UHGV virus genome: UHGV-0106067
Source: a virus
Reading direction: 5' to 3' (one strand)
Length of the DNA stretch: 62,562 nt
Shown: positions 45,929-47,762 of the stretch, piece after piece
How positions within the stretch are numbered: the first letter of the stretch is position 1
How the letters are laid out: every line of letters begins with the position of its first letter
Translations under genes and position numbers: made by a program
Notes under the pieces: model-generated
The model's database searches: none
Seen by the model: the letters and a program-made list of their open reading frames with translations, nothing else
What the model was told of the DNA's origin: nothing

Positions 45929-46429
45929 TCAGGCACCAACAAGCCGTCTGACGCTCACACCATACAGCCCGTTTTTCGCCATTCCCGTATACAGAAAGGT
46001 ATTCACCGTCTTCGTGTGGATACCCATTTCACTGGCAAGGCGACAGGGTCTCGACTGGCGGTAGACATAACCGAACATCACCACCATCTCTGACATCGTC
46101 AGCGGGCGGGCAGCACTGTTATACGTCCAGACGCCGTTGTGTATGGCATCACTTATCTGCTCACCATCACGGAGCAACTCCGCATCCAGTTGCAGAAAAT
46201 GACGCCCCTGGAACATACAGCGCATCAGCCTGCCCAGCAGGCCATCACTAATTATCAGCCAGGATTCGTCAAAGTCCGGGATATAACGGCGGTTCTCCGG
46301 CAGGAAAAACTCCCTCGCCAGTATCACACTGTGTTCCTTCAGTAACGCCTGCAGACCATACTCCAGATAGCGATTCCTGGTAGCCAGAATCACCTTCATC
46401 GCAGCACCTTCCTGTTTTTTATGCCCCAT
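45929..46429 (-). CDS. LuxR/FixJ-type HTH transcriptional regulator
   Basis: C-terminal LTMSEMVVMFGYVYRQSRPCRLASEMGIHTKTVNTFLYTGMAKNG resembles LuxR-family HTH; likely start at internal Met (46399). Confidence 0.45.
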   Translation of the reverse strand: MGHKKQEGAAMKVILATRNRYLEYGLQALLKEHSVILAREFFLPENRRYIPDFDESWLIISDGLLGRLMRCMFQGRHFLQLDAELLRDGEQISDAIHNGVWTYNSAARPLTMSEMVVMFGYVYRQSRPCRLASEMGIHTKTVNTFLYTGMAKNGLYGVSVRRLVGA

Positions 46430-46487
46430 GAAAAACGGCAGACCAGAGTCCTGCGCCTGCCGTCATACTTCATGTCACCTTCAGCAA

Positions 46488-47762
46488 TTAAAACTCGAAG
46501 TTCACACCAACATTCCAGGAGGCATCGCCATCACTGAATGCCACGCCTGCTTTCGCTGCGGTCTGCTCGTTGAAGCGGTAACCCACACCCACCGCCAGTG
46601 CCTGCTGGTCGCTGTAACCACCAACCGCTGCCGTGGCGTTGAATTTACCCACACTGTACGGCTGGAACAGACCTGTCAGGGCCGCAGACTGTGCTGCTGC
46701 TCGTTTCATTTCCTTATGGTTTTCATTAATCTGGCGCTGCTGGCTGTCCAGACGTGCTGAATGTTGCTGCAGCGTACGGGTATTGGCTGCAATCGCCTTG
46801 CTGTTTTTCTCAATGGATTGCGTGTTACGGGTGACACGGCCATCAATGGCACCAACTGCTGCATCAATACGGTCAGTACGACCAGACAGGGCTACCAGAC
46901 CATCGTTAACAGAAATGGTGTTCTTTGCACCTTCTGCACGGGTCAGGGTGCCGTCAGAACTCACACCAACAGTGGTGCGATCTTTGATGGATTTATCCAG
47001 ATCAACAATAGCATCGCTTACACGCACATTTTTTGGAGCTGTAACATCATGTGTATAGCTGCCATCCTCTTCCTGATAAATGGTTGTATCTGCCTGAATG
47101 GCTGCAACTACATTTTTTACAGACTCTCGCTCCACTGAGCCTGTTTCATCAAGGGTAATGTTACCGTTAGCATCGATAGCAAAAGTTGTGTCTTTATTCA
47201 ACCTATCTATATTGGTAACGATGCGGTTGTATTCCTGCAGAACACCTGGGCCTTGTTTAACAGCAGCAAGCGCGGCATCAGAGTTTCCCCCTGAACGAAC
47301 CGCAGACACATACGCTGGCGCTGTTTCAGATGTAATCTTAGAAGATATATCATCTTTCAAAGCTAATACTTTATCTAAATCATTTTTATTTATTTTTTTC
47401 AAAGACTCTAATTTTAAACTCTCTGAGTAAACAGGAAATGATATTTTATTAGCTATATCCTGTAACTCTTTTTTAAAATCAGGACTATCGACATTATATT
47501 TAAATTTTTTTATCAACGCAGTATACGCATTTTCCATCTCCTTTTTATTATATGACATGACGCTTCCTGTTGCTGTATTAATAGCACCTAAAACCTCTTT
47601 TCCTTGTGCGTCTACTATCTTGGCACCTTCCCCATCCTTGTAAAATTTTACGATGTAATCGCTGCCTTTAACTGGGATATCTAAAGCCATGGCCCCAGAA
47701 CTCACCAGCATCAGTCCGGCAACAGCAGATGAAAGAATAGTCTTTGTAAATTTCTTGCTCAT
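46488..47762 (-). CDS. trimeric autotransporter adhesin with YadA-type C-terminal anchor (Eib-like)
   Basis: signal peptide [26 protein letters not shown]; coiled-coil stalk; C-terminal anchor [47 protein letters not shown]; very AT-rich 5-prime third. Confidence 0.7.

Follow-up and report, generated by a model that had tools for sequence, protein, structure and literature searches.

Trimeric autotransporter adhesins (TAAs) of the Eib type bind the Fc part of antibodies, confer serum resistance and shape aggregation and colonisation by commensal Escherichia coli and by strains that produce Shiga toxin (STEC). Here, we analysed a stretch of 62,562 nucleotides (nt), the UHGV virus genome UHGV-0106067 (hereafter the window), which carries an adhesin gene of this kind next to the gene of a small protein. 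An earlier note on this DNA had read the pair as an Eib-like adhesin of 424 amino acids (aa) with a novel head and a LuxR/FixJ-type regulator, inserted among phage tail genes. Does the locus thus encode a new adhesin-regulator system or a variant of a known one? We found that it is a real variant of the known Eib system and not a new system: the Eib adhesin carries an alternative head module whose sequence was on record before, though without a name or a characterisation. That the locus is an Eib cassette, with the architecture described below, can be stated with good confidence. It is probably a moron, a term for additional genes that bring their own promoter and terminator and sit in a late operon, here that of the tail genes. 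The current understanding is not overturned by this result, and neither head shuffling among TAAs nor an eib cassette in a prophage will surprise a specialist. The new leads are modest: a fold-level identity for the small protein, which we call ORF-156 after its earliest annotation, its linkage to genes of small TAAs, and candidate operators.

Identity of the adhesin cassette

A megablast search of phage records led to the GenBank entries of the prophages P-EibA, P-EibC and P-EibD of strain ECOR-9 (AF151091, AF151674 and AF151675). In these entries a module of orf-191, an upstream region with a stem-loop, eib, a second stem-loop, orf-156 and orf-60 was annotated in 2000, and the cassette in the window matches it gene for gene in all three prophages. 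The claim that the pair is newly inserted had to be given up on these grounds, as the module also comes with the promoter region and the stalk of eibA itself.

The relation to eibA (P-EibA, E. coli ECOR-9, AF151091) is visible in the gene order and in a near-identical upstream region. Within the adhesin gene, nt 1–21 are identical to eibA, nt 22 to ~790 cannot be aligned, and the remainder is ~98.5% identical to the end (98–100% for the first 21 and the last ~485 nt), so that residues 257–424 differ from EibA at only two positions. ORF-156 is 98% identical to ORF-156A, and the protein encoded next to it, ORF-60, is 75% identical to ORF-60A. Because the flanking sequence is nearly identical to eibA while the head is unalignable, we regard the gene as an eibA-type expression unit in which a single head cassette of ~765 bp was exchanged. 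The differences from EibA lie in this exchange, by which residues ~8–256 are replaced, in the length of the protein (392 aa in EibA versus 424 aa here) and in the phage backbone, which is 933W-like here and lambda-like, with J, lom and orf-401, in P-EibA.

The TAA (type Vc) features that had been described for the 424-aa protein, namely a Sec signal peptide, a coiled-coil stalk and a YadA-type anchor, were all recovered. In the signal peptide the n-region is basic, the core is hydrophobic, and the cleavage motif reads A-M-A. The anchor is the sole Pfam domain of the protein (PF03895, YadA_anchor; residues 366–424, E = 1.4e-16, 60.7 bits against a cut-off of 22.7) and matched the YadA anchor structure 2lme (E = 1.5e-18), and residues 246–356 matched the EibD stalk structures 2xqh (E = 3e-31) and 2xzr (E = 6e-27). 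An anchor of this type contributes four strands per chain, and the trimer would form a 12-stranded barrel.

EibD (P-EibD, AF151675; structures 2XQH and 2XZR) shares the saddle, the left-handed coiled coil and the anchor with 80% identity over 203 residues, rising to ~93% from residue 257. Its prophage has the same orf-156/orf-60 pair and, in the downstream phage context, the same L0124-like (933W-type) gene, whereas the P-EibD upstream region is only partly similar to the one in the window. In contrast to the protein studied here, EibD (511 aa) combines the canonical Eib N-terminal domain with a YadA-like head of the LPBR type (a beta-roll that is parallel and left-handed), a neck and a right-handed coiled coil.

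What does the conserved part of the protein suggest about its function? Over residues 257–365 the stalk is identical to that of EibA and ~93% identical to that of EibD. In EibG, the mutation D391A abolishes IgG-Fc binding, and a mutant without nearly the entire passenger retains Fc binding (PMC13534694). EibG D391 and the adjacent A392 are said to align with EibD residues printed as 'D378-Y388' (PMC13534694); we read this pair as D387-Y388, because Tyr 388 is directly preceded by Asp 387 in our alignment. There, EibD D387-Y388 corresponds to D300-A301 of the 424-aa protein. The Fc-binding Asp (D391 in EibG) is therefore kept, while the position of EibD Y388 is taken by Ala301, in agreement with EibA and EibG. 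Since the stalk segment is identical to EibA, we strongly infer that the adhesin binds IgG Fc non-immunologically and is displayed as a trimer on the cell surface; judged by the same sequence it should contribute to serum resistance. The EibD-homologous segment begins at about residue 257, and the more distal EibD stalk is absent. This distal part reportedly carries the IgA-binding segment, and because it is absent, IgA binding by the 424-aa protein is, if that location is right, not expected. The Cla and Yal adhesins of STEC negative for the locus of enterocyte effacement, described in 2026, are likewise small, prophage- or plasmid-borne, EibG-related TAAs of E. coli, but Cla has neither the residues for Fc binding nor an Eib N-terminal domain and occurs in other genomic contexts (PMC13534694), whereas the Eib Fc-binding stalk is kept exactly here.

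The head domain

As had been noticed from the sequence, the 5' half of the adhesin gene is very AT-rich: together with the upstream region it has a GC content of 0.32–0.40 (47100–47850), compared to 0.52–0.57 in the 3' half and in the ORF-156 gene. The repeats of YadA heads are likewise missing, since residues 27–261 gave no YadA_head or YadA_stalk match in Pfam even at E<=10. In fact, the head failed the tests for both the canonical Eib N-terminal domain and the YadA-like LPBR head. The proposal of a novel head depended on the head not aligning to known Eib or YadA heads, and no such alignment was found, neither to the N-terminal domains of EibA and EibD nor to YadA heads. The core of the head, which we term NTD-B, showed no BLASTP similarity to EibA or EibD, and an NTD-B profile of 12 sequences matched neither of the two at E<=10 in hmmsearch. 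With hhalign, NTD-B reached a probability of 24.9% against an EibA-type profile, confined to a connector of 36 columns (YNR...DT.F.ID..GNI), and 11.8% against the EibD domain, whereas the EibD domain against the EibA-type profile, employed as control, gave 96.8% (E = 2.6e-10, 107 columns).

The structure of the head was predicted as a monomer with AlphaFold2 (AF2), with a mean predicted local distance difference test score (pLDDT) of 88. The model contains no beta-roll, but a five-stranded beta region packed with two helices, followed by a helical segment and a beta-hairpin connector, and it found no structural match in PDB or BFVD. As far as its sequence tells, the head is no YadA beta-roll, and a relation to the canonical Eib N-terminal domain was not detected.

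Whether this makes the head novel depends on the comparison. The absence of YadA-head motifs, although true for the 424-aa protein, is not new in itself, because EibA was already known to lack a YadA-like beta-roll and neck and to carry an N-terminal 'Eib' domain only (PMC7568254, PMC12511318). In this respect EibA and the 424-aa protein are alike (PMC7568254); they differ in that the NTD-B core has no detectable homology to the N-terminal domain of EibA. The head is thus new in being unlike those of EibA, EibD and YadA, but its family occurs in many TAAs of E. coli prophages: our NTD-B search yielded at least 100 clusters at 90% identity, all from E. coli or Shigella where an organism was named, and PHROG 9547 matches the whole 424-aa protein (E = 2e-192). 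The exact protein is already in NCBI as 'YadA C-terminal domain-containing protein'. Scanning 1.84 billion representative proteins with a hidden Markov model gave 37 matches, among which all full-domain matches were at most 427 aa long; the longer proteins share a short hairpin motif only.

Could the head nevertheless be an extremely diverged version of the canonical Eib N-terminal domain, and the gene simply a divergent eibA allele? We regard this as rather unlikely, but the arguments deserve to be weighed. The published model of the canonical domain, common to EibA, EibD and EibG, has a pair of helices packed against an antiparallel sheet, and a hairpin in addition (PMC12511318), which is broadly like the five strands, two helices and further strand of our head model. 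Furthermore, the connector YNR..(D/E)T..(I/L)D..GN(I/V) is common to the head and to EibA residues 131–160, and all sequence outside the head is eibA-like. On the other hand, the hhalign probabilities obtained for NTD-B, set beside that of the control, leave the head unlinked to the canonical domain, and the profile and BLASTP searches revealed no similarity between the cores. Two properties of the model count against a separate head class: the head was modelled as a monomer although TAAs are obligate trimers, and the underlying alignment of 13 sequences included P0100, a protein with an EibA-type core. Because of both, and because head and Eib domains were compared by sequence, a very remote relation between the two is conceivable. 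P0100 was also part of the alignment used for the search of representative proteins, but was left out of the profile used for the hmmsearch and hhalign tests. We considered P0100 as a bridge between NTD-B and the EibA domain and rejected it, as it is a mosaic that joins an EibA-type core to a connector of the NTD-B type.

Apart from the core, the hairpin motif, (T)TFAIDxxGNITLDE, was found repeated 8–25 times in four proteins of 1,095–3,677 aa (P0165, P0169, P0170 and P0172), presumably giant TAAs. As it recurs in such very long proteins, the hairpin appears to be a widespread stalk-insertion or connector motif that is independent of the NTD-B core.

Allelic variation of the head

Next to its origin, the distribution of the head is informative. 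Among 5,426 complete E. coli genomes the cassette was matched in 38, in three of them over at least 80% of its length and in one identically. This allele is rare at the DNA level, while the NTD-B head family is common in E. coli prophages. A variation profile of 11 loci with common flanks (mean pairwise identity) shows where the diversity resides: identity is 0.98–1.0 over the promoter-proximal 300 bp (47761–48060), drops to 0.33–0.62 across the head and returns to 0.85–0.98 over the larger part of the stalk, anchor and ORF-156 stretch. An NTD-B head is present at each of the ten allelic loci (E = 1e-35 to 1e-80), and nine of the ten keep the RIDAAVG segment. For most allele pairs the number of synonymous substitutions per site (dS) is 0–0.06 in the stalk but mostly 1–3 in the head, where it is saturated and lower only for the closest pairs. 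Because of this disparity we conclude that old head lineages were shuffled onto a nearly clonal chassis. There is perhaps also some diversifying selection on the head: the ratio of nonsynonymous to synonymous substitutions (dN/dS) was 1.7 for the closest allele pair, a value derived from few substitutions.

By analogy to other TAAs, the head most likely sets the specificity of adhesion or autoaggregation and the antigenic type; cells carrying EibA and EibD, for instance, are mutually exclusive in aggregates (PMC7568254). A different explanation for the diversity would be conflict between phages, with the variable head serving the phage by masking surface receptors in the sense of superinfection exclusion. 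Inducible phages of the PhiR5 and PhiR12 series, which plate on K-12 as well as on E. coli C, indeed carry the gene in their tail-fibre region, and several adhesin paralogues can occur per genome. Yet the functions established for characterised Eibs are immunoglobulin binding, serum resistance, aggregation and adherence (PMC13534694, PMC12511318, PMC7568254), and we hold a role in phage conflict to be improbable.

The locus has a constant chassis for expression and anchoring, made up of the promoter region of eibA, the Fc-binding stalk with the anchor, and ORF-156/ORF-60, on which unrelated heads are exchanged by recombination. Such a framework allows typing of the poorly annotated 'YadA C-terminal domain' genes and helps to predict which of them encode IgG binders.

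ORF-156, a putative regulator

The full open reading frame downstream of the adhesin gene (45929..46429, minus strand) would encode 166 aa, but the likely start is M11 at 46399. This start is preceded by the Shine-Dalgarno sequence AGGAAGG and is in accord with both RefSeq and the first annotation of ORF-156. ORF-156 has no match in Pfam or NCBIfam. Its family is called 'hypothetical protein' throughout (797 members in the 90% cluster; PHROG 6585, function unknown), and full-text searches on orf-156 together with eib found nothing.

Is it a LuxR/FixJ-type protein, as proposed? At the level of the predicted fold, this is supported. The AF2 model (pLDDT 87, predicted template modelling score 0.81) shows a beta-alpha-beta N-domain followed by a helical C-domain, and in a Foldseek search of PDB the top 37 matches are all NarL/FixJ-type regulators (probability 0.66–1.0), including StyR, RcsB, LiaR, EvgA, DesR, FixJ, VraR, DosR and VpsT. 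Independently of the model, a profile of the ORF-156 family run against all PDB sequences gave just four matches, all LuxR-type (three VqmA and GerE) and in the correct register. The most conserved columns of the family, LTMSEMVVMFGY...LA.EMGI..KTVNTFLY.G..KNGL, follow the GerE/LuxR pattern with one inserted residue, and sub-threshold matches to Sigma70_r4 or r4_2 were obtained for six of 21 family members.

The receiver part is a different matter. It comprises only four strands (~95 aa) and lacks beta5/alpha5; T7, R8 and N9 take the place of the acidic pair, the conserved Thr/Ser and Lys are missing, and Asp52 alone is kept. Since the receiver is truncated and lacks these residues, ORF-156 is to be seen as a pseudo-receiver protein, probably of the LuxR type, and not as a two-component response regulator; the proposed LuxR/FixJ type thus stands for the predicted fold, but not for a receiver that could be phosphorylated. 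ORF-156 resembles NarL/FixJ regulators such as RcsB, EvgA, StyR, LiaR and VpsT in its predicted flavodoxin-like N-domain and C-terminal helix-turn-helix (HTH), but those have a complete receiver and ~200–220 aa, compared to the truncated 156 aa here. Atypical relatives of the NarL/FixJ family exist in E. coli itself, for example CsgD and MatA/EcpR. The protein hitherto known for 25 years as 'ORF-156' gains a candidate identity in this way, that of a LuxR-type pseudo-receiver regulator with candidate binding sites.

One could object that ORF-156 does not bind DNA at all and that, being a small alpha/beta protein, it resembles the regulators in its fold by chance. The missing Pfam and NCBIfam matches would fit this objection, as would the Foldseek E-values of only 9e-4 to 1e-2 with template modelling (TM) scores of 0.3–0.5. 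However, all of the top 37 Foldseek matches share one architecture, a receiver (REC) plus a LuxR HTH; the independent profile search of PDB hit LuxR-type HTH proteins only; and LTxSE..V..(6-7)..LAxEMGIxxKTVxTFLY..KNGL, the GerE pattern with a one-residue insertion, makes up the most conserved columns of the family. We thus consider a chance resemblance very unlikely, and that ORF-156 has a DNA-binding HTH fold highly probable.

What would such a protein regulate? Its genomic linkage points to adhesins. Homologues 66–71% identical to ORF-156 lie ~83–87 nt downstream of a gene for a small YadA-anchor protein in three further contexts: at the J/tail-fibre end of lambdoid prophages, at the end of a tailspike-type prophage, and on a plasmid-like contig. 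The homologue on the latter is 66% identical and stands beside a gene for a TAA of 1,439 aa with YadA head, stalk and anchor, perhaps a Saa-like protein, in which case the contig would represent the context of YalA. ORF-156 is most likely a DNA-binding regulator that travels with the genes of small TAAs.

An alternative is that ORF-156, co-expressed by read-through, regulates host or phage genes other than eib, for example for motility or other adhesins, and has its main targets elsewhere. Cross-regulators of this sort are MatA/EcpR as well as PapX and SfaX, whose genes stand at the ends of fimbrial operons. The position of ORF-156 downstream of the adhesin gene and behind a terminator is compatible with such a role, and so are the 51–55% identical paralogues beside PapB/Hha or PerC genes without a TAA, as well as the reported need of eib expression for IbrAB even with orf-156 present. 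But close homologues are tightly and repeatedly linked to small TAA genes in four mobile contexts, and a dyad and a palindrome are conserved in the TAA promoter region (see below), findings with which additional targets of ORF-156 would still be compatible. On balance we judge main targets elsewhere to be unlikely, and a direct regulation of the eib promoter by ORF-156 to be possible, a view which we hold tentatively.

Several observations weigh against this reading of the locus and have to be kept in mind. Pfam GerE was not detected in ORF-156, and the E-values of its PDB profile matches are marginal (0.11–0.27). The paralogues at 51–55% identity adjoin no TAA gene. Eib prophages bearing orf-156 are reported to express Eib poorly in K-12 without ibrAB, and because they need ibrAB, ORF-156 would, if so, not be a sufficient activator; no ibrAB was found in the window by tblastn. 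Finally, a scan for promoter-like sites was not above chance (6 sites against 6.0 expected). IbrA and IbrB are the known activators of eib expression, and regulation by ORF-156 could explain why this expression is weak and variable.

The most far-reaching reading combines all of these points: ORF-156 would be an unrecognised family of truncated pseudo-receiver LuxR-type regulators that move with small TAA genes and control the adhesin promoter via the dyad CATCAGAT-N11-ATCCGATG at the -35 region, and NTD-B a structurally new class of TAA heads, whose hypervariable alleles, set on an unchanging IgG-binding stalk, provide strain-specific self-recognition or antigenic variation. That the whole of it is correct appears doubtful to us. 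If true, ORF-156 would be the missing cis-encoded partner of IbrAB in Eib expression.

Some observations on ORF-156 relatives and on ibr-like genes stand apart from this argument. The paralogues at 51–55% identity (loci L007–L010, 5001–5495, and L021–L022) are orphans, with no TAA gene or remnant nearby. In the E. coli chromosome their neighbours are hpaBC and PerC-like genes, and others are found beside genes for PapB- and Hha-family regulators. The orphan paralogue P0132 is listed in 391 blocks of the genome collection, and no TAA remnant was found beside it. The closest prophage relative, that of E. coli SW070917 (L005, 9259–11114, beside the LPD38 gene), contains IbrB-like and 3'-phosphoadenosine-5'-phosphosulfate (PAPS) reductase (IbrA-like) genes. 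Panacea-domain and antirepressor genes accompany the IbrB-like gene there, while the window has the integrase at the equivalent place.

ORF-60 (PHROG 9340) has a basic middle part and a C-terminal hydrophobic helix (MCFMLFVWLGGVLALVATAAVVMQ); RefSeq calls a shorter version of 42–43 aa.

Upstream region, candidate operators and terminators

Candidate sites for ORF-156 lie in the upstream region of the adhesin gene, whose elements are listed together with the other features in Table 1. With respect to P-EibA, this region differs in a segment of 115 bp that is missing in P-EibA and in a 22-bp tandem expansion in the window. Of the 31 loci compared, 14 have the conserved dyad upstream of the TAA gene, each of them a single time. 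Among these are the lambdoid loci L011–L014, where another TAA is combined with a homologue of ORF-156 that is 67% identical. The palindrome TTATTTGTATACAGATAA is kept in the otherwise divergent upstream regions of P-EibD and L011 (lambdoid). In the window it gave four matches with up to three mismatches, compared to 0.38 expected; two of the four are its own two strands and the others are located at 47994 and 27460. A -35/-10-like pair from the promoter scan, which as stated did not exceed chance, is located at 47808–47780. For comparison, plasmid-borne eibG needs no more than the 168 bp upstream of it to be expressed (PMC13534694). The inverted repeat further upstream is the counterpart of the 'stem_loop' annotated upstream of eibA (P-EibA 3777–3814).

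An intrinsic terminator separates the adhesin gene from ORF-156 (RNA fold -32.5 kcal/mol, z = -3.15); its counterpart in the annotated prophages is the 'stem_loop' behind eibA and eibD. This terminator is clear, and the AT-rich composition sets the cassette off from its flanks. In total, 10 terminator-like sites were found compared to 2.3 +/- 1.6 expected.

Table 1 Features of the adhesin locus in the window.
Feature	Coordinates	Strand	Remarks
orf-191 homologue (DUF4376, tail-fibre-assembly-like)	48581..49159	-	upstream border of cassette
AT-rich upstream/promoter region of adhesin gene	47763..48580	-	818 bp; near-identical to eibA upstream region
Perfect 11-bp inverted repeat GAAATTCCGAA-N16-TTCGGAATTTC	47866..47903	-	-141 to -104 from ATG
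Conserved dyad ACATCAGAT-N11-ATCCGATGT	47808..47836	-	abuts -35-like hexamer TTGAAC; candidate operator
Palindrome TTATTTGTATACAGATAA	47781..47798	-	overlaps -10-like GATAAT; 19-36 nt upstream of ATG
Eib-family trimeric autotransporter adhesin gene	46488..47762	-	424 aa
Sec signal peptide	47685..47762	-	residues 1-26; read from sequence; first 21 nt = eibA
Swapped, hypervariable, AT-rich head cassette	46975..47741	-	~residues 8-262; ~765 bp
NTD-B core		-	residues 27 to ~190; beta-hairpin connector follows within head cassette
Saddle and left-handed coiled-coil stalk	46668..46994	-	residues 257-365; IgG-Fc-binding segment RID(300)AAVG
YadA-type membrane anchor	46491..46667	-	residues 366-424
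Intrinsic terminator, GC-rich hairpin + U5	46430..46474	-	between adhesin gene and ORF-156
ORF-156, truncated pseudo-receiver + predicted LuxR/sigma-r4-type HTH, putative regulator	45929..46399	-	156 aa
ORF-60	45747..45929	-	60 aa; start overlaps ORF-156 stop (TGATG)
Hairpin + T-run	45722..45749	+	downstream cassette border; would terminate + strand (antisense) transcription only

Taking these elements together, we propose that the locus works as a moron, an Eib cassette carried by a temperate, 933W-like phage of E. coli, in which the distal 230 residues of the adhesin would have been replaced, by recombination, with the AT-rich NTD-B head of another family. An AT-rich and probably poorly expressed promoter, the upstream region of eibA itself, would give rise to a monocistronic adhesin transcript. 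The adhesin would be exported via its Sec signal peptide, trimerise via the YadA-type anchor and insert into the outer membrane, displaying a constant IgG-Fc-binding stalk with Asp300 that is tipped by an exchangeable head. The strong terminator would end most eib transcripts, and because this hairpin with its U5 run separates eib from ORF-156, ORF-156 and ORF-60 are probably expressed at a low level by read-through. ORF-60, putatively a small membrane protein, would be translationally coupled to ORF-156. Most economically, ORF-156 might then act on the AT-rich eib promoter, in one direction or the other, via the candidate dyad at 47808–47836 or the palindrome at 47781–47798.

Further repeats and hairpins were noticed in the same region. 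At 48092–48129, ~330 bp upstream of the adhesin start codon, three copies of the 11-bp unit TTCAATGGTCA (gene strand) stand in tandem, compared to one copy in NCTC9112 and P-EibA. The 16-nt sequence ATACAGAATTTTCGTA (gene strand) occurs in identical copies at 48161–48176 and 48338–48353; P-EibA lacks the 115 bp between the two copies, which would fit a deletion between direct repeats. Sites similar to the hairpin at the downstream border were seen at 48256–48283, 48427–48450 and 48556–48580, and the four, each composed of an A6–7 run followed by a GGGGAGC...GCTCCCC-type hairpin (gene strand), bracket the eib/ORF-156/ORF-60 cassette. As intrinsic terminators all four would work for the plus (antisense) strand only, and one possible role would be insulation against antisense transcription out of the AT-rich cassette. 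An interpretation as small RNA genes was discarded, since neither Rfam nor promoter evidence supported it.

Phage genome and setting of the locus

As a whole, the window appears to be the complete genome of a temperate, 933W-like phage of E. coli in circularly permuted form. Positions 60364–62562 and 1–2899, which meet at the junction 62562/1, adjoin each other in the SW070917 prophage, and the induced phage PhiR5_2 (61.5 kb) is 97–99% identical to the window over the three long segments compared. The gene content includes an integrase, Q, a cI-like repressor, RecT/YqaJ, an N4-gp56-type capsid protein, a 2,783-aa LPD38 protein and a collagen-repeat tail fibre.

The adhesin gene and ORF-156 had been placed at a classic prophage tail-fibre site, and this was confirmed by the DUF4376 gene upstream and the virion and tail-tip fibre genes downstream. 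The product of the upstream gene matches Pfam DUF4376 (E = 1.3e-19) and PHROG 1141 (tail fibre protein); ORF-191A and ORF-191D hold the equivalent position in P-EibA and P-EibD. The gene of the collagen-repeat tail fibre precedes the DUF4376 gene, and downstream of the cassette follow an internal virion protein homologue and a tail-tip fibre gene.

Rfam gave no match in the locus, neither with the whole window at the gathering threshold nor with 45600–48700 at E<=1. Elsewhere in the window four matches exceeded the gathering score, at 2809–3025, 6786–6960, 16002–16077 and 16102–16189: STnc100 small RNA, sok antitoxin RNA, isrK and C4 antisense RNA. The combination of isrK and C4 antisense RNA is typical of an immunity region with antirepressor control. 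Genes similar to those of type I restriction-modification S and M subunits are found beside the Q antiterminator (3212–6327, minus strand). The early region (21946–24492, plus strand) contains PAPS-reductase-like and queuine-tRNA-ribosyltransferase-like genes, which may serve DNA modification with 7-deazaguanine.

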